From assembly GCA_029249345.1 (NCBI GenBank), contig JAQWHM010000011.1, forward strand, positions 25,916 to 89,915: a stretch of 64,000 nucleotides of DNA. Direction: 5' to 3'. The notes under the pieces are model-generated. The model did no database searches. It was not told where the DNA came from and worked only from the letters and a program-made list of their open reading frames with translations. Position numbers and translations under genes: made by a program. Below, piece after piece: positions 28,383 to 38,343 of the stretch (position 1 is the stretch's first letter; each line of letters begins with the position of its first letter). This DNA comes from Rhodothermales bacterium. Its GTDB lineage: Bacteria > Bacteroidota > Rhodothermia > Rhodothermales > UBA10348.

Positions 28383-29369
28383 ATGGACGCATTTTTGACC
28401 ACGTCGGGCGTATTGGCGATTGGCATCATTTTGATGGCGCTGATCATCTTTCTGTACTTCATTCCAGTCGGCCTTTGGGTAACGGCGTTTTTCTCCGGAG
28501 TTAAGATCAAGCTCGTGCGGGATCTTATGGGAATGAGACTGCGAAAAGTGCCTCCGGTAGCCATAGTGAGACCTCTGATTACCTCTCATAAGGCAGGAAT
28601 CTATCTAGATGCCTCTCAATTGGAAGCCCACTTTTTGGCGGGTGGACAAGTTCAAAAGGTCGTTAATGCCTTAATTTCGGCAGATAAGGCTAACATTGAT
28701 CTGAATTTTGAACGCGCCACGGCTATTGACCTTGCGGGTCGAGATGTATTTGAAGCCGTTCAAGTCTCGGTCAACCCAAAAGTGATTGAAACACCGCCGG
28801 TTTCCGCTGTGGCCAAAGACGGAATCCAGGTACGAGCTATTGCTCGCGTTACGGTTCGGGCCAACATTGAACGCTTGGTGGGTGGAGCCGGAGAAGAGAC
28901 CATCATTGCTCGTGTTGGCGAGGGGATTGTTTCAACAATTGGTTCTTCCGCGACGCACAAGGCGGTTCTCGAAAACCCAGATTCTATTTCAAAAGTAGTA
29001 TTGGCTAAGGGTCTTGACTCCGGTACCGCATTTGAAATCTTATCTATTGATATTGCCGATGTAGATGTAGGCGAAAACATCGGTGCGAAACTGCAAACGG
29101 ATCAGGCGGATGCGGATCTGAAGATTGCCCGGGCCAAAGCTGAAGAGCGCCGCGCAGCAGCTGTCGCCATGGAGCAGGAAATGAAAGCAGTAGTTCAAGA
29201 GCAGCGAGCCAAAGTCGTTGCAGCCGAAGCAGAAGTCCCGCTTGCGATGGCCGACGCATTCAGAAATGGTCGTCTAGGTGTGATGGACTATTACAACATG
29301 CAAAACGTAGAAGCAGACACGCAGATGAGACGCTCCATCGGGGGTCCGGACGAAACGAAAAAAGACTAG
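28383..29369 (+). CDS. floA: Flotillin-like protein FloA (YqfA/UPF0365)
   Basis: [52 protein letters not shown]. Confidence 0.92.
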
Positions 29370-29390: not shown

Positions 29391-30671
29391 TCAGATCTGG
29401 TGCGCATCCCGCTGACGAGTGATGCGCACCATGTCGATGCGATTTGCGGTAGCTCTAAGAATAGCAAACCGAAATCCATCCAGTTCGAACTCATCGCGTA
29501 CGTCTGGAATGGCACCGAGCCGTTCCAGAAGGTATCCAGCGAGTGTTTCATAGTCGCCATCTGGAAGATGAATACCGGTTTTTTCGGCCAATTCGTCAAC
29601 TTCCAAGCGCCCAGCTGCAATAACTGACTCTTCGTTTATAATGCGAAGCGTATTCTCTTCCGTATCAAATTCATCCTGGATATCACCGAAAATCTCCTCG
29701 AGGAGATCCTCGCTGGTGACCAAACCAGCCGTCCCACCATATTCGTCAATTACGATGGCAATGGATGTGTTGGTCGCCAGAAATTCCCGCAGCAGTTCTT
29801 TAGAGAGCTTAGTTTCCGGGACATAGGTCCCAGGCCGCAACATGTCCTCAAGACTCTTGGGATCATTAAACAAGTCGTAAGCAAAGGCGATGCCAACAAT
29901 TTGGTCGATGTTATCCTTATAAATAGGAATCTTTGAGTGGCCCGATGCCACAAAGGACTGCCTGAGATCTTCGATAGAAGTGCCTTCTTCCAGGGCCATG
30001 ATATCCGTTCGGGGACACATGGACTCCTTCACCCGAATCGTGCTCATGGCAAATACATTGCTTAGCAGGGTGCTTTCTTCTTCATCGAGGTCTAATTCAC
30101 CCGTCTTTTTGCTTTCCTCGATCATCAATTCGAAGTCACGGCGCATAAACTGAGAGAAGGACCCGGAAGGTGCTTTGATCAACTTCATCAGTAGCGTCGC
30201 CGTCCAGCGAGCAATCAAGATCATCGGAAACAGAACGACGTAGGTAATCCTCAACGGGATAGCCAATGCAAAAACAGCGCGATTGGCGATTTCACGCATG
30301 ACCGATTTCGGAATGACCTCACCAATAATCAACACAACTAACGAAGCCAGAATGGTCTGAGTAGTTAAGGTCAGAATTCCTACCCCGGATGCGTCCAACC
30401 CCAAGACATTTCCGAAAAACGTATTGAGTGGCGACTCCAAATAAAGCGCAACAAGCGTTGAGTACACCACAAGTGCCAGGTTATTACCGACAAGGGTGGT
30501 GGTGAGTAGCGTATCCGGTTCTTCTAAAAACCGAGAGACCAAACGTCCAACCATACCTCCGCGACGCGCAAAAACTTCGACCTTGAGCCGATTGGCCGCC
30601 ACGAAAGCGATCTCCGATCCGGAGAAAAATGCGCTCAGGAGAAGCGCGATCAAAATTAGGGTGAGTTCCAT
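29391..30671 (-). CDS. Hemolysin-family CNNM/CBS/CorC-HlyC transporter-associated protein
   Basis: SAFFSGSEIA, TTLVGNN, GEVIPKS, VIDEYGGTAGLVT, ETLAGY. Confidence 0.92.
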   Translation of the reverse strand: MELTLILIALLLSAFFSGSEIAFVAANRLKVEVFARRGGMVGRLVSRFLEEPDTLLTTTLVGNNLALVVYSTLVALYLESPLNTFFGNVLGLDASGVGILTLTTQTILASLVVLIIGEVIPKSVMREIANRAVFALAIPLRITYVVLFPMILIARWTATLLMKLIKAPSGSFSQFMRRDFELMIEESKKTGELDLDEEESTLLSNVFAMSTIRVKESMCPRTDIMALEEGTSIEDLRQSFVASGHSKIPIYKDNIDQIVGIAFAYDLFNDPKSLEDMLRPGTYVPETKLSKELLREFLATNTSIAIVIDEYGGTAGLVTSEDLLEEIFGDIQDEFDTEENTLRIINEESVIAAGRLEVDELAEKTGIHLPDGDYETLAGYLLERLGAIPDVRDEFELDGFRFAILRATANRIDMVRITRQRDAHQI

Positions 30672-30699: not shown

Positions 30700-31482
30700 C
30701 TACTTCCCCTTAAATACGGCCTTCCTTTTTCCAAGAAATGCATCGACCCCTTCCTGGAAGTCGTCTGTTCCACACGCTTGCCCGAACAAATCGGCCTCTT
30801 TCTGAAGACCCTCTGCCTGGGGCAGATCAGCGTACTGAAGTGCTTCTAAGCTGAAAGCAACCGCGATGGGTGCCTTGGAAATAATGGTACCGATCAATTT
30901 CCGAGCACCTGGGAGGAGTTCTTCAGACGTATAAACATGATTAACCAGTCCAATGGCATGGGCCCGCTCGGCATTTACCATATTACCCGATAGAATCAAC
31001 TCCGTGGCAATCCCTTTCCCCACAATCCGGGGAAGCCTTTGTGTCGCACCATATCCGGGAAGGATACCGAGGTTAACCTCTGGCTGGCCAAATAGGGCAT
31101 TATCACTGGCTACACGCATGTGGCAAGCCAAGGCCAATTCGCTACCGCCACCTAATGCAAAACCGTTAACGGCAGCCACAACAGGTTTGGCTGATCCTTC
31201 AATTTTGTTGAATACCCCTTGCCCGTAATCGGCAAACGCTTTCCCTTCGACAGGACCCAATTCCTTGAACTGGGAAATATCCGCACCTGCAACAAACGCC
31301 TTGGGCCCGGCTCCAGTTAGGATGATACCTTTGACGGCCGAATCGGTAGCTGCAGAGGTAAACCAATCATCTAAATCCGCAAGCACTTCAGCATTGAGCG
31401 CATTCAGCTTAGTGGGTCTATTGATAGTAACGACTGCGATTCCTTCTGAATCAACTTCGACGAGAAGCGTAGAGTACGACAT
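30700..31482 (-). CDS. Enoyl-CoA hydratase/crotonase family protein
   Basis: AFVAGADI, GFALGGGSELALACH, GQPEVNLGILPGYGATQRL. Confidence 0.93.
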   Translation of the reverse strand: MSYSTLLVEVDSEGIAVVTINRPTKLNALNAEVLADLDDWFTSAATDSAVKGIILTGAGPKAFVAGADISQFKELGPVEGKAFADYGQGVFNKIEGSAKPVVAAVNGFALGGGSELALACHMRVASDNALFGQPEVNLGILPGYGATQRLPRIVGKGIATELILSGNMVNAERAHAIGLVNHVYTSEELLPGARKLIGTIISKAPIAVAFSLEALQYADLPQAEGLQKEADLFGQACGTDDFQEGVDAFLGKRKAVFKGK

Positions 31483-31531: not shown

Positions 31532-32404
31532 CTATTCTTGTACACGCGTACCGATCGAGGAGGATTCCTCGCTTAATGGATCTTCAAACGTATCCATTTC
31601 GGTTAGCAGATCGAGAGGATTGGCAAATACTTCTTCCATTTCCTCAACGGATGCCTGTGTTTCTTCAACTTCGGTCAGCAAGGTATCGAGCTGGAATGAA
31701 ATCTCTTCTGGATTACGCAGCGTGAGCGACTGTTCGTGGATGTATTTAACCACATCCTCAACTGTTTCGAGTTGAGCCTCAATGATTTCTAAATTCTCTT
31801 GTCCTTTTTTGGACCGATCTAGACGCTGCTCTAAAATACGCAGTCGTCGAGCCTTGATGGCGCGCACTCTCGGGGAGTCGTCCTCCATATCCACCCGTAA
31901 ATCCTCAATAGAGCGTATAACCTCCATCTCGGTGCCCGACTGAACAGAATACTCATACCGCTCTTTCTGGTAGAGTAACTTCATGTACGACTCGAGTAGT
32001 CCGTCAATTTTTTTCAGATGAGAATCCAACATACCCTGCGAGGCATAGCTCAATTTCCGGTAGTTGGTCCGGATAGACTTTTCGACCTTGCGCAACCCTA
32101 CGTAGCGCCGTCTGTCTGGAGCGGCAAGGTTCTGATACAGTTCTTTTTGGGATGGTGGCTTGGCGTACTCCGCAGATACACGCGAGCGAACCGCTTTTCT
32201 AAATCGTGGATCGCGCGGCATCATTCCTAACAAAGCCAACTCCGTCCCTGCCGTAAATATGAGCGCGGCATCAAAAAACCAAGCTGGAGCACCCGTCAAG
32301 CTGACCCCAAAGGCTACCATCATAGCCATAATAAGGAATGTAAGATTCCACGGATGTAGAAATGCTTCCTTCGTGTAGTTGATATCCTGATGTATGGGCT
32401 TCAA
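31532..32404 (-). CDS. Hypothetical membrane protein (2 TM helices, long coiled coil), PspA-operon partner
   Basis: N-terminal hydrophobic hairpin, heptad-rich cytoplasmic part; third gene of the pspA operon. Confidence 0.8.
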   Translation of the reverse strand: MKPIHQDINYTKEAFLHPWNLTFLIMAMMVAFGVSLTGAPAWFFDAALIFTAGTELALLGMMPRDPRFRKAVRSRVSAEYAKPPSQKELYQNLAAPDRRRYVGLRKVEKSIRTNYRKLSYASQGMLDSHLKKIDGLLESYMKLLYQKERYEYSVQSGTEMEVIRSIEDLRVDMEDDSPRVRAIKARRLRILEQRLDRSKKGQENLEIIEAQLETVEDVVKYIHEQSLTLRNPEEISFQLDTLLTEVEETQASVEEMEEVFANPLDLLTEMDTFEDPLSEESSSIGTRVQE

Positions 32405-32438
32405 TCTAGTCTCTGATCTTCCTCTTAGCGACAGCCGA

Positions 32439-32897
32439 TTAAGGCTTCATTCTTCCGATAGTTTTTTCTGGAAGGGGCTTCTCTTCCGATTTGGTATCAA
32501 TTGGACTCGGTTCGGAAGTAGGTGCATTCTTCTGCTGAACGGCACCCGTTTCCTGCTTCATCTGATTGATTAGGTCCCTAGCTCTCGCCTTTTTCTGTTC
32601 CTCTTCCAATTTCGCCAACTCCGCCGCGTCCTGAGCCTCAGACACTTCTGAGTTCATCTCAACAGAGTCCAGTGCCACTTCCATGCGAGCCTCTGACAAG
32701 GCTGAATCCATTTGAAGGCGCTCGATCATCTGACCATGCTCATCGAATAGATCCTGCATATCCGTAGCCATACCAGTCACCGCTTTCGTGACCGACGACT
32801 TTCTAGATGCCGAACGTTGCGCCTTTTTAAGATCTCTGATCTTACGAAGATGCTCTTTTTCGGCTTCTTTTAATTTCTGATACTCTTCAGGTGTCAT
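32439..32897 (-). CDS. Truncated PspA paralog (C-terminal-region homolog)
   Basis: ALSEARMEVALDSV against ALNEARMEMALDSV in the adjacent PspA; shared KTIG tail. Confidence 0.8.
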   Translation of the reverse strand: MTPEEYQKLKEAEKEHLRKIRDLKKAQRSASRKSSVTKAVTGMATDMQDLFDEHGQMIERLQMDSALSEARMEVALDSVEMNSEVSEAQDAAELAKLEEEQKKARARDLINQMKQETGAVQQKNAPTSEPSPIDTKSEEKPLPEKTIGRMKP

Positions 32898-32906
32898 GAT
32901 CGAATC

Positions 32907-33677
32907 TTATTGACCCTTTGTACGCTGTTTTCCAATGGTCTTATAACCCGTCTCAGCTTCTTGCTCTGAAATATCGAGTTGCGGCTCTTCGGCTGATCCA
33001 CTCGTATCACCTACGCCCATTTCAAGTTTGAACTGCTTGACCAGTTCTGAAGCACGAATCTGCTGCGCGTCTTCCTCGATTTTGAGCGTTTCTGTGTCCA
33101 CAGAATCCAACGCCATTTCCATGCGAGCTTCATTGAGTGCAGTTTGTTCTTGGATACGATTGAGCATTTCGTCGTGGGTCTGATCGATGCCAGCAACCTC
33201 AAAGGACTCGAGTGTATCCGCAACTTTGGCCTGCCACTTGGCACGTTCGTGGGCACGCAATGCATCTTTCGCTTCTGCAATCTTACGTTCTTTCTCCCGC
33301 ATGAACGCTTTTTTGACCTGAAGAGCCTTGTCGTATGCCGCAGATGCATACTTGAGTTGCTCTTTAGCCGATGATACATTTTCTCTGACCGACTCTAGTC
33401 GCATTGCGTATCGCTCAGCAATGTCATCGCGTCCAGCCTGAATTCCAGCTTTTACTTTGGAAGTAACGTCAGCCAGTTCCTTCTCATACTTTCGTACTTC
33501 TTTCTGAAGCATCATCACGTTGGCTTTCACCGTTGCGATGTTTTCGTTCATTTTCGGGACCTGATCGTTGAGCTCCCTAATGTTCTGCTCGAGGATCAAC
33601 TTGGGATCTTCGAGAGCGGAAATTGCACCGCCGAAAACAGATTTAACAAATCGCGTGAAACGTGACCAGATGGACAT
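32907..33677 (-). CDS. pspA: PspA/IM30 family protein (bacterial ESCRT-III)
   Basis: MSIWSRFTRFVKSVFG amphipathic helix 0, EDPKLILEQNIREL, long coiled coil. Confidence 0.9.
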   Translation of the reverse strand: MSIWSRFTRFVKSVFGGAISALEDPKLILEQNIRELNDQVPKMNENIATVKANVMMLQKEVRKYEKELADVTSKVKAGIQAGRDDIAERYAMRLESVRENVSSAKEQLKYASAAYDKALQVKKAFMREKERKIAEAKDALRAHERAKWQAKVADTLESFEVAGIDQTHDEMLNRIQEQTALNEARMEMALDSVDTETLKIEEDAQQIRASELVKQFKLEMGVGDTSGSAEEPQLDISEQEAETGYKTIGKQRTKGQ

Positions 33678-33831
33678 GGCTTTCTAAATGTTAGTTAACG
33701 GGAATTCATTTCCCGTATCAAATATAGTAATGATGCGGATTCAATCATCAAACTGAAGAAAAAACGGCACGTTTCTCTTCAACTTACACCGGAATTTCCA
33801 GCTCGTGAAACCTTACTACGTAAAGAGTCTG

Positions 33832-35157
33832 CTACGGATTCACCCAACGGCCATTCTGATACTTTGAAAGTAGACGACTCCCCTCTTTTGGGGTCTCCTC
33901 GTCAAACTTAAAGGCGGCCATCATTACGGGAATAGTACGTTCAATGTGTGCATTCGTAGACGCCTGAATCAGAGCAATAGACTCTCCTATCTGAACGGTA
34001 TCCCCCGGCTTCACCGTAAGGATGATACCTGCCAAAGGATCTACACTATCCTCTTTGGTGGCTCTCCCGGCGCCTAAGACCACAGAAGCACGACCGATAT
34101 CTCTGGAGTCAATCCACTTTATGACGCCCGATTGGCTAGCATGAACAACCACTTCGACCCGATTTTCATTTCTGGATGCTGGATCTCGAATGGCCTGAGC
34201 ACTGCCCCCTTGAACCTCAACCATCTCAACAAACTTTTCGAACGCTCGGCCAGAAGAAATAGCAGAATTACACAGCTCTTTCGCTTCTTCTTGTGACGAT
34301 GCGACCTTTCCAGCAAGTAACATCTCAACGGCTAGCGCGATAGTCACTTCCATGACATCATCTGGTCCGTTTCCGTGCAAGCAGTCAATACACTCTACGA
34401 TTTCTGGCCAGTTGCCTGTAGCATGGCCCAGAGGATTGTTCATGTCCGTCAGAAAAGCAGTTGTCGGAGTACCGAAACTCTCAGCCAGGCGTGTCATCGT
34501 CTCGGCAAGTACTCGCGCATCCTGTTCGGACTGCATCATGGCTCCAGATCCGCATTTCACATCCAGAACCAATGCATCCGCACCCTCAGCTAGTTTTTTC
34601 GAAAGAATGGAGGCGGCAATAAATGGGATGTATTCGACTGTACCGGTTGCATCTCGCAACGCATACATTTTTTTATCAGCCGGAGCGATGTCTTTGGTCT
34701 GCCCGATCATAACCACGCCAATCTCTGCCAGCTGCTTGCGATAAACTGCTGTAGATACGGTCGTTTGAAATCCAGGTATAGATTCCAGCTTATCGAGCGT
34801 TCCACCTGTGTGCCCCAGACCCCTTCCCGATATCATGGGCACTTTTACACCGCAGGCCGCCACTAGAGGAGCCAATACGATTGATATTTTATCGCCAACT
34901 CCGCCGGTAGAGTGTTTGTCCACCTTAATCCCCGGAATCTCACTCAGATCCAACACTTCTCCAGAGTGAAGCATCGTTTCGGTAAGCGAAACCATCTCAG
35001 ATTCAGACAGCCCTTGAAGGAAGGATGCCATCATGAAGGCAGCCATCTGATAATCAGGAATAGAGCCATCTGTATATCCCTTTACGAGAAAAGAAATCTC
35101 TTCCCGAGAGAGTGCTCCACCGTTCCTTTTTTGGATGATCAGATCAATTGCATTCAT
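33832..35157 (-). CDS. pdp: Pyrimidine-nucleoside/thymidine phosphorylase
   Basis: DKHSTGGVGDK, SGRGLGHTGGTLDKLESIPG, LYALRD-like MYALRDAT, SILSKKLA. Confidence 0.93.
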   Translation of the reverse strand: MNAIDLIIQKRNGGALSREEISFLVKGYTDGSIPDYQMAAFMMASFLQGLSESEMVSLTETMLHSGEVLDLSEIPGIKVDKHSTGGVGDKISIVLAPLVAACGVKVPMISGRGLGHTGGTLDKLESIPGFQTTVSTAVYRKQLAEIGVVMIGQTKDIAPADKKMYALRDATGTVEYIPFIAASILSKKLAEGADALVLDVKCGSGAMMQSEQDARVLAETMTRLAESFGTPTTAFLTDMNNPLGHATGNWPEIVECIDCLHGNGPDDVMEVTIALAVEMLLAGKVASSQEEAKELCNSAISSGRAFEKFVEMVEVQGGSAQAIRDPASRNENRVEVVVHASQSGVIKWIDSRDIGRASVVLGAGRATKEDSVDPLAGIILTVKPGDTVQIGESIALIQASTNAHIERTIPVMMAAFKFDEETPKEGSRLLSKYQNGRWVNP

Positions 35158-36753: not shown

Positions 36754-36960
36754 TTACTTCTTGGCGTAGCGGCGGTTGAACTTCTCAACACGACCGGCTG
36801 TATCGACAAACTGGCGTTTTCCGGTGTAGAAAGGATGATTGGTGGAATCAACCTCTGACGCGTACTCTTCACCTTTCATAGTCGAACGCGTCTGAAACTT
36901 CGTTCCGTCAGCTAAGGTGACCGTCATCATGTGGTATTCTGGATGGATATCCTTCTTCAT
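36754..36960 (-). CDS. rpmE: 50S ribosomal protein L31 (Cys-free, type B-like)
   Basis: MKKDIHPEY...HPFYTGK...[13 protein letters not shown]; contains no Cys. Confidence 0.95.
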
Positions 36961-37146: not shown

Positions 37147-38343
37147 TTAGCTTACCTCCCAAGTATCTCCTTCCTCCAGGAGCTGCTTCAACGATCCTTT
37201 TCCAGAACGCTCGATGACCGCATTGATCTGCTCTCGAACCTGGACATCGTATGCCGGACGTTCCTCTCGATAAAAGATTCCGAAGGGCTGCGGTAGATCT
37301 TCTTTCCAGTACACTCGCGAAAGGATGCCAGCCAGTTCCCGACTCGTTTCGTCGTAAACCAAACAGTCATCTATTCCGAATTCTCCAGATTCCAAATCAA
37401 CCGTCTCGAGGTGAAATCCTTCAAGCCTCAAGCCCTTCGTGCCGCCCGCATACACTAACGGTTTCCCGTGCTCAATGAAAATGGCCCTATCAGATTTAGT
37501 CGCCTTTTCGGTGTACTGAAAGAAAGCACCATCATTAAAAATATTGCAGTTCTGGTAGACCTCTACAAATCCCGTTCCCTGATACGCATGAGATGCCTTG
37601 AGCATTTTCTTCATGTGTTTGGGGTCCCGGTCCATAGATCGCGCCACGAACGATGCATCGGCGCCCAAGACGAGGGCTATCGGGTTAAATGGATGATCCA
37701 GTGAACCAAATGGAGTTGATTTGGTGATCTTGCCCTTCTCTGAAGTAGGACTGTACTGCCCCTTCGTCAATCCGTATATCTGGTTATTGAACATGATAAC
37801 CTGCATGTTCACATTACGACGCATCAAGTGAATAATGTGATTGCCACCGATGGACAGGCTATCCCCATCGCCGGTAATCATCCACACATCCAGATCCGGA
37901 CGCGCCGTTTTGAGGCCTGTCACAATCGTAGGTGCACGTCCGTGAATAGAGTGCATACCGTAGGTGTTCATGTAATAGGGAAAACGACTCGAGCAGCCAA
38001 TTCCCGATATAAACACCAGTTTTTCTCTGGGCACACCCAATTCGGGCATCAACCGCTGAACAGTCGCAAGAATGGCATAATCGCCACACCCAGGACACCA
38101 GCGCACATCCTGATCTGACGAAAAGTCAGCTCGGCTGAGGGCACCATCTCCTCCCGGTCCTGGTGGCCTTGCACCCGGTGGACCTTTGGGTCCTGGAGGC
38201 CTGGCTCCCGGCGGGCCTTTCGGTCCAGGAGGTCTAGCTCCTGGCGGGCGTGAGGGTGGCATCTTGGGGCCTGCTCCCGGTGGACGAGTAGGTTTCCGTC
38301 CCGGTGGCAAATTCGATTTGGATTCGTTGTCTGACATATCCAC
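37147..38343 (-). CDS. korB: 2-oxoacid:ferredoxin oxidoreductase beta subunit with Pro-rich N-terminal extension
   Basis: WCPGCGD, SGIGCSSRFPYY, HGRAP, GDGDSLSIGGNH, NNQIYGLTKGQYSPT. Confidence 0.93.
   Translation of the reverse strand: MDMSDNESKSNLPPGRKPTRPPGAGPKMPPSRPPGARPPGPKGPPGARPPGPKGPPGARPPGPGGDGALSRADFSSDQDVRWCPGCGDYAILATVQRLMPELGVPREKLVFISGIGCSSRFPYYMNTYGMHSIHGRAPTIVTGLKTARPDLDVWMITGDGDSLSIGGNHIIHLMRRNVNMQVIMFNNQIYGLTKGQYSPTSEKGKITKSTPFGSLDHPFNPIALVLGADASFVARSMDRDPKHMKKMLKASHAYQGTGFVEVYQNCNIFNDGAFFQYTEKATKSDRAIFIEHGKPLVYAGGTKGLRLEGFHLETVDLESGEFGIDDCLVYDETSRELAGILSRVYWKEDLPQPFGIFYREERPAYDVQVREQINAVIERSGKGSLKQLLEEGDTWEVS
38149..38247 (-). repeat. Three 33-bp coding tandem repeats (PPGARPPGPKG)
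   Basis: Units CCGCCAGGAGCTAGACCTCCTGGACCGAAAGGC / CCGCCGGGAGCCAGGCCTCCAGGACCCAAAGGT / CCACCGGGTGCAAGGCCACCAGGACCGGGAGGA. Confidence 0.9.

Follow-up and report, generated by a model that had tools for sequence, protein, structure and literature searches.

A divergent PspA operon of Rhodothermales and its two-transmembrane-segment partner share their distribution with a Cdc48/VAT-like AAA+ ATPase

We analysed a 64,000-nucleotide stretch of the genome of a Rhodothermales bacterium (assembly GCA_029249345.1, contig JAQWHM010000011.1, positions 25,916 to 89,915; hereafter the window), in which three closely spaced genes encode a PspA/IM30 protein, a truncated PspA paralogue and a 290-residue protein with two transmembrane (TM) segments. 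A preliminary description made from the sequence alone had treated these genes as a tight operon, and on re-examination the open reading frames (ORFs) were identical, as were the gaps of 9 base pairs (bp) between pspA and the gene for the 152-residue paralogue and of 34 bp between that gene and the gene for the 290-residue protein. The TTG start of the last gene is consistent with the N termini of its homologues. A fourth component, absent from that description, is a two-domain AAA+ ATPase encoded elsewhere in the same genome and unlinked to the operon. The four genes are as follows.

32907-33677, minus strand: divergent PspA/IM30 protein, 256 residues (ORF and PF04012 match)
32439-32897, minus strand: truncated PspA paralogue, 152 residues (ORF and homology to the C-terminal half of PspA)
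31532-32404, minus strand: membrane protein, 290 residues, TTG start (ORF)
C12:26970-28859, another contig of the genome: two-domain AAA+ ATPase, 629 residues (PF00004 at residues 375-500)

The 256-residue protein matches the PspA_IM30 profile PF04012 with 69.7 bits (cut-off 33.9, E = 3.5e-19) over positions 1-207 of 220, and is the sole match to this profile in the 2.87-Mb genome. A phmmer search of the PDB reveals that residues 1-238 are colinear with solved Vipp1/PspA chains, including the N-terminal amphipathic helix α0, which here reads MSIWSRFTRFVKSVFGG. Vipp1 sll0617 chains such as 8qfv_0 and 7o3w_D are matched with E values of 3.7e-6 to 7e-6, and the 6zvr_B sequence group, deposited both as Vipp1 and as PspA, with an E value of 2.9e-4. 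The protein ends in the tail motif KTIGKQR and is a predicted polymer-forming member of the PspA/IM30 family.

This PspA is 44% identical over its full length to the PspA of an operon in another phylum that also encodes a TM protein and an AAA+ ATPase, but just 24-32% identical, over partial length, to canonical PspA proteins of Bacteroidota. The same division is observed in one fixed sample of 401 Bacteroidota genomes, which served for the entire phyletic survey. PF04012 is matched in 149 of these genomes, including all 100 that carry the family of the 290-residue protein; PspA proteins of the kind encoded in the window score 54-79 bits, compared with 103-187 bits for the canonical proteins of the other 49 genomes, none of which carries a member of the 290-residue family. 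Because the scores, the identities and the co-occurrence with the 290-residue family all differ from those of canonical Bacteroidota PspA, the protein belongs, as judged from sequence, to a separate clade.

The 290-residue family itself is found in 100 of the 401 genomes, nearly all of them class-level relatives. In 99 of these, PspA starts 837-1494 bp upstream of the 290-residue gene on the same strand, and in the hundredth the two genes are split between contigs. The one class member without the 290-residue gene (G482) also lacks PspA and the AAA+ ATPase. Named homologues of all three operon proteins are from Rhodothermales, and the order PspA, short paralogue, 290-residue gene is retained in 80 loci of this order wherever upstream DNA is present, except in L076 and L080, which lack the short gene. 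Outside the Bacteroidota, 49 of 87 genomes of a second phylum (that of locus L094) encode a member of the 290-residue family, and all 20 loci examined there share the operon SBP/OmpA-PspA-SBP/OmpA-permease-ABC-290-residue gene. The three-gene arrangement is far beyond chance. The preliminary description proposed a tight operon and suggested a neighbourhood survey of homologues of the 290-residue protein; the genes do co-occur in other genomes, with the triad recurring across the Rhodothermales, all 100 genomes carrying both families (99 with the genes adjacent) and the association seen again in a second phylum.

The AAA+ ATPase follows nearly the same distribution. An orthologue is present in 99 of the 401 genomes, and all 99 lie within the 100 that carry the 290-residue family. 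The ATPase of the window's genome is 41-43% identical to operonic ATPases of the other-phylum loci (E values of 1e-139 to 1e-146), and distant homologues of the 290-residue protein are followed directly by a gene for an AAA protein of 590-622 residues, with a spacing of 6 bp in L096, 48 bp in L094 and a 14-bp overlap in L099. The AAA+ gene stands immediately downstream in 18 of the 20 second-phylum loci, so the 290-residue family is genomically coupled to a classical AAA+ ATPase in 18/20 loci of the other phylum and in 99/100 genomes of its own. In orders that are sisters to the Rhodothermales (L108-L110), genes for thymidine/pyrimidine-nucleoside phosphorylase (TP), PspA, the short paralogue, the 290-residue protein, an enoyl-CoA hydratase/isomerase (ECH), a CNNM/CorC-type membrane protein and the AAA+ ATPase lie in this order on one strand. 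Because the sister orders keep the AAA+ gene within this block, the gene probably belonged to the ancestral cluster and moved elsewhere in Rhodothermales.

The closest solved structures to this ATPase are VAT, Cdc48 and p97, not Vps4. Pfam assigns an AAA domain only; AAA_lid_3 is matched weakly (E = 0.0024), at 17.8 bits and below the cut-off of 27.2, and no MIT domain was detected. An identification as Vps4, which calls for an MIT domain and a single meiotic-clade AAA domain, was considered and rejected. In L094 (8983-9957) and L099 (3136-4107) the AAA+ gene is followed by a gene for a protein of about 323 residues that has a signal-peptide-like N terminus and no Pfam family; no homologue of this protein was found in the window's genome.

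The 290-residue protein begins with a conserved motif, NYTKEAFLHPWNL, predicted to be cytoplasmic, followed by a two-TM hairpin (residues ~21-62), a basic juxtamembrane helix with the pattern PRxxRFRR, a helical domain of about 190 residues and an acidic disordered tail ending in xTRVxE. Hydropathy analysis places the hydrophobic segments at residues ~21-41 and ~44-62, with a loop of a few residues between them, and charge analysis counts 11 K/R in residues 63-100, directly after the TM segments. By the positive-inside rule, both termini are predicted to be cytoplasmic. AlphaFold models are all-helical with long helices (pLDDT 74.7 for the full AF2 model; pLDDT 77.8 and pTM 0.65 for the soluble domain). 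Among 67 diverse family members, Arg194 is invariant and Ala14, Glu55 and Glu216 are conserved in at least 90%, with the near-invariant Glu55 falling inside TM2.

This protein had been proposed to be the anchor or sensor of the system. The two TM segments make a role as anchor plausible, whereas a role as periplasmic sensor is unlikely because the loop between them comprises only a few residues. Sensing within the membrane via the conserved TM2 glutamate is possible, as pure speculation. When the protein and 18 relatives were scanned against Pfam and NCBIfam, the only matches were sub-threshold coiled-coil noise, and no family was assigned. There are 767 close homologues, and of the 910 clusters (50% identity) that a family profile recovers, 386 have E ≤ 1e-10; by sequence the family is thus much wider than the Rhodothermales. 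Many of the second-phylum genomes (G503-G558) also encode an extra, weaker match confined to the helical domain (E values of 1e-6 to 1e-13, profile positions ~85-265) in frames of 248-422 residues, mostly 330-410; these may represent a paralogous family with a different N terminus.

The 152-residue protein, listed by Ravi et al. 2024 as 'Rmar_0091 coiled-coil', matches no Pfam family of its own. Its similarity to PspA is nevertheless clear, with 33% identity to PspA residues 127-250 in BLASTP (E = 4e-14) and, in a family-against-family hhalign comparison, a probability of 99.4% (E = 6.7e-22). The protein corresponds to PspA residues ~115-256, or roughly helices α3-α5 and the tail, and lacks the amphipathic helix α0 and the α1/α2 hairpin. 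On this sequence evidence it is a true truncated PspA paralogue, as originally described. Judged from gene spacing, about 95 of 99 genomes have the short paralogue; in four, the distance between the PspA and 290-residue genes is too short to accommodate it, as confirmed in L111 and L112. The gene is likewise absent in L076 and L080.

PspA and its short paralogue also share a C-terminal tail motif that follows an acidic or proline-rich linker. The tail reads KT[ILV]G[KR]QR in PspA and PEKTIG[RK]M[KR] in the paralogue (PEKTIGRMKP at the C terminus of the window protein), and is near-invariant in about 75 orthologues of each. Variants in other orders and in another phylum include KTVGN, KTVGR and KTIA. 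Canonical Bacteroidota PspA proteins lack this motif, and the acidic C-terminal end of the 290-residue protein is unlike it.

The gene identities, the paralogy, the membrane-anchor features, and the conservation and co-occurrence of the four genes are observations, from which we infer the physical interactions and the direction of regulation considered here. We judge it reasonably probable (roughly 0.6) that the operon forms the central part of a conserved module of four components for inner-membrane remodelling or repair, built on a distinct PspA subfamily. PspA would be the polymer-forming effector of the ESCRT-III superfamily. The 290-residue protein would be inserted in the membrane as a two-TM hairpin whose ends both face the cytoplasm, and its helical cytoplasmic domain would provide a fixed platform or nucleator for PspA assembly; the close and in places overlapping arrangement of its gene with the AAA+ gene hints at a further role in positioning the ATPase. 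In PspA/Vipp1 polymers, the C-terminal helices dock onto the hairpins of neighbouring subunits (reviewed in PMC7619361). Because the 152-residue paralogue keeps these docking helices but has neither hairpin backbone nor membrane helix, it probably modulates, caps or tunes PspA assembly. The Cdc48/VAT-like ATPase would then remodel, disassemble or recycle the assembly, and may engage the KT[IV]G[KR] tails of PspA and the paralogue, or the tail of the membrane protein.

A more ambitious version of this model is that several bacterial phyla possess a complete ESCRT-III-like cycle of assembly and disassembly, with a two-TM nucleator, a capping or timing paralogue and Cdc48-like AAA+ recycling via KT[IV]G[KR] tails as a functional analogue of MIM-Vps4 recognition. 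We regard this version as unlikely in its entirety.

Several observations weigh against a four-component module. One genome (G421) has the 290-residue family without an AAA+ orthologue, and the AAA+ gene is unlinked in Rhodothermales. The short paralogue is dispensable, because four lineages do without it. In some Bacteroidia metagenome-assembled genomes (MAGs), no PspA is encoded within 6 kb of a 290-residue homologue. A literature search by Rhodothermus and Salinibacter locus tags found no experimental work on the module genes. Finally, co-polymerization of the 290-residue protein with PspA is unsupported, because we could not show the protein to be ESCRT-III-like.

This last point concerns the strongest alternative, which follows the interpretation of Ravi et al. 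2024 that the third protein ('SIG+TM+Snf7' in their nomenclature) is a membrane-anchored divergent Snf7. The 290-residue protein would then be a membrane-tethered ESCRT-III subunit that co-polymerizes with PspA, and the module would strictly count as a bacterial ESCRT-III/Vps4-like machine. The tight coupling of its gene to that of a classical AAA+ ATPase is consistent with such a role, as are weak Snf7 matches in a few relatives and a low-ranking CdvB2 match in the Foldseek lists, and in the best hhalign alignment, which is non-significant, the post-TM sequence PRxxRFRRxV resembles PspA α0 (WSRFTRFVKS). However, the Pfam Snf7 profile (PF03357) does not match the window protein and reaches two of 19 relatives only at E values of 0.24 or above. 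Across 121 Rhodothermales genomes, no Snf7 match exceeds the Pfam cut-off; weak matches recur in frames of about 310 residues, and of ten that were checked, one (L088, E = 0.06) lies within the 290-residue gene.

Further comparisons gave a similar result. When the full-length or soluble part of the 290-residue family was queried with hhalign against three PspA profiles, probabilities were 2-12%, compared with 0.4-0.9% for reversed controls and 97.5% for a positive control of canonical against Rhodothermia PspA. Sequence-profile searches of the PDB with a narrow and a broad family alignment recovered FleN, designed helical proteins and BLOC1S2, without any ESCRT-III, PspA or Vipp1 chain. Foldseek searches of the PDB with the full-length and the soluble-domain model returned nothing below an E value of 0.1. 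The top matches are generic long-helix proteins, mostly axonemal inner proteins, BAR domains and IncA, although CdvB2 does appear low in the lists, at ranks 28 and 45. Both profile and fold searches have difficulty with long-helix proteins. The 'divergent Snf7' label is thus a literature claim that Pfam, hhalign and Foldseek did not reproduce here, and we consider a Snf7-like subunit possible but doubtful.

A second alternative to the four-component module arises from the genes that flank the operon in the window, which are listed here with the region upstream of pspA.

33832-35157, minus strand: thymidine/pyrimidine-nucleoside phosphorylase (TP), directly upstream of pspA
33699-33752, minus strand: promoter-like region in the 154-bp gap 5′ of pspA (read from the sequence)
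30700-31482, minus strand: enoyl-CoA hydratase/isomerase (ECH; PF00378, E = 1.3e-63), 49 bp 3′ of the 290-residue gene
29391-30671, minus strand: CNNM/CorC-type (DUF21-CBS-CorC) membrane protein (PF01595, PF00571 and PF03471), 28 bp 3′ of the hydratase gene
28383-29369, plus strand: FloA flotillin (PF12127, E = 1e-159), convergent with the CNNM gene

These flanks are largely syntenic in Rhodothermales, with TP upstream, ECH and CNNM/CorC downstream and FloA convergent. The linkage of the triad might therefore be inherited synteny only, with the 290-residue protein working together with ECH and CNNM/CorC and having no direct role with PspA. In keeping with this, the entire block from TP to CNNM is syntenic across the class, and in the Bacteroidia MAGs the order is GltX, small protein, 290-residue homologue and hydratase, with PspA not nearby. 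ECH follows the 290-residue gene in most Rhodothermales loci and in the sister orders, yet is absent from the other-phylum operons, in which PspA and the AAA+ gene are kept beside the 290-residue homologue with neither hydratase nor CNNM. Moreover, eight Rhodothermales loci (L042, L044, L048, L064, L074, L075, L077 and L078) have lost ECH and CNNM but retain the triad, and the phyletic profile of the 290-residue family matches those of the divergent PspA and the AAA+ ATPase. Inherited synteny alone is accordingly a very improbable explanation. That the 152-residue gene is a functionless, decaying remnant of a tandem pspA duplication is even harder to credit. The gene has no counterpart of the N-terminal half of PspA, four lineages have no copy, and its conservation is the lowest within the triad (29-52% identity, compared with 64-92% for PspA), but about 75 of 80 loci, spread over at least two orders, retain an intact ORF, the central EARxExALxS block and the PEKTIGR tail are strongly conserved, and the gene is tightly spaced to both neighbours.

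Some features of these flanks stand apart from the choice between explanations. The ECH and CNNM/CorC genes lie between the 290-residue and AAA+ genes in the sister orders; a link of the system to lipid or ion homeostasis through these two genes is possible, and the membership of ECH is uncertain. The small protein of the Bacteroidia MAGs, encoded directly upstream of the 290-residue homologue (L092:5700-5951, L097:5596-5919, L098:5672-5911 and L101:5400-5651), has 79-107 residues, a basic N terminus, the motifs NEFGEI and DDKKFRG and no Pfam family; an equivalence to the short PspA paralogue was ruled out (hhalign probability below 0.1%). Nearly every Rhodothermia locus has TP immediately 5′ of pspA, and the myxobacterium Archangium gephyra carries the order TP, X, PspA, PBPB, TM+Snf7 (Ravi et al. 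2024, Table S3). This association of TP with PspA across phyla has no obvious rationale.

The four-component module can be compared with systems described previously. The preliminary description could match the operon to no known architecture, but Ravi et al. 2024 (mSystems, Table S3) list the same genes in the same order, in a row that includes thymidine phosphorylase and ribosomal protein L31 upstream and MoaC beyond. In the window, L31 is encoded at 36754-36960, with NhaA intervening, and MoaC lies beyond FloA. The organism of that row belongs to the same taxonomic order, its operon encodes the same three protein families and nothing essential differs, and the window operon is an orthologue of this computationally catalogued architecture. 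The idea of such a system was raised earlier by these authors from gene neighbourhoods. There the triad takes up a single table row and a single sentence, with no link to the AAA+ ATPase, no figures on co-occurrence and no mention of the KTIG tail common to PspA and its paralogue.

Ravi et al. 2024 also describe operons, such as that of OGG56892.1 from Ca. Handelsmanbacteria, that combine TM-Snf7 and PspA with an ABC transporter, a PBPB-OmpA protein and an ATPase carrying two classical AAA+ domains, one inactive and one active, and they propose ATP-dependent membrane remodelling for PspA, TM-Snf7 and AAA+. The corresponding parts are found here, as PspA followed by a TM-anchored helical protein in one operon and an unlinked ATPase of about 600 residues with one recognizable C-terminal classical AAA domain. 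The PspA clade (44% identity) and the two-TM helical family are the same, and the ATPases are orthologous. The window differs in that it lacks the ABC transporter and SBP-OmpA genes, encodes its AAA+ protein on another contig and has a truncated paralogue inserted.

Among the experimentally familiar systems, Escherichia coli PspABC-F, Bacillus subtilis LiaIH and PspA-YdjGHI, and Mycobacterium tuberculosis ClgR-PspAMN resemble the operon in placing PspA next to a small integral membrane partner expected to recruit it. In contrast, the 290-residue protein is unrelated in sequence to PspB, PspC, LiaI, YdjG/H or PspM, which bears out the earlier view that the partner is not a characterized Psp or Lia component, and the operon lacks a dedicated regulator. 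The reported absence of pspB, pspC, pspF and lia genes holds for the operon and the window, with no genome-wide search made for PspF or LiaI. A classical PspF-PspABC system was rejected: PspB is absent from the whole genome, two tandem PspC-domain genes lie elsewhere (C18:18428-18865, E values of 1e-21 to 1e-22), and the operon is flanked by thymidine phosphorylase and hydratase genes, neither of which encodes a regulator. A LiaIH-LiaGFSR system was likewise rejected, as none of its genes is in the operon and the sole Toastrack/DUF4097 gene lies on another contig (C3:225039-225824); the LiaI-LiaF-TM domain was not searched for.

Archaeal and eukaryotic ESCRT-III/Vps4 systems are alike in that an ESCRT-III-superfamily polymer, here PspA, has a classical-clade AAA+ ATPase as its partner. 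Short conserved tail motifs that follow disordered linkers at the C terminus recall MIM motifs, a likeness of form rather than of demonstrated homology. By contrast, the ATPase considered here is nearest to VAT/Cdc48/p97, with no MIT domain detected, and the membrane partner is an integral membrane protein. Reviews describe bacteria as lacking ESCRT-III and Vps4 systems (PMC10936438, PMC7619361).

The 154-bp region upstream of pspA contains TTTG (33752-33749), 22 nucleotides, TATATTTG (33726-33719) and the inverted repeat CGGGAA-N5-TTCCCG (33715-33699). We take the TTTG/TATATTTG region to be a putative Bacteroidota-type −33/−7 promoter. In 8-9 of 10 related loci, a CACTATATT box, extended as CACTATATT(TG), is conserved together with a GGGA-N8-10-TCCC inverted repeat between the box and the start codon. 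These elements could constitute a promoter plus an operator or a 5′-untranslated-region hairpin.

Farther from the operon, floA sits where the sister orders have the AAA+ gene; it has no adjoining NfeD gene, and the MoaC gene lies upstream of it. SPFH proteins are known partners of PspA in B. subtilis (PMC8581546). On the other side, an ORF for a 2-oxoacid:ferredoxin oxidoreductase beta subunit (37147-38343, minus strand) carries an N-terminal Pro/Gly/Arg-rich repeat, (PPGARPPGPKG)x3, before the conserved domain.

To the earlier catalogue our analysis adds a quantitative phyletic profile, in which 100 of 100 genomes with the 290-residue family encode PspA and 99 the AAA+ ATPase, and connects the Rhodothermales triad to an unlinked ATPase via the in-cluster arrangement of sister orders. 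It also adds the shared KTIG tail motif and a warning about the 'Snf7' label, which standard profile and fold searches did not recover. The module bears on how bacterial PspA/Vipp1 polymers reach the membrane and how they are taken apart, and offers for this question a compact, co-inherited gene set comprising a PspA clade, a putative membrane platform, an optional truncated paralogue and a classical AAA+ ATPase. Because cultivable relatives exist (Rhodothermus, Salinibacter and Roseithermus), the question is directly testable.

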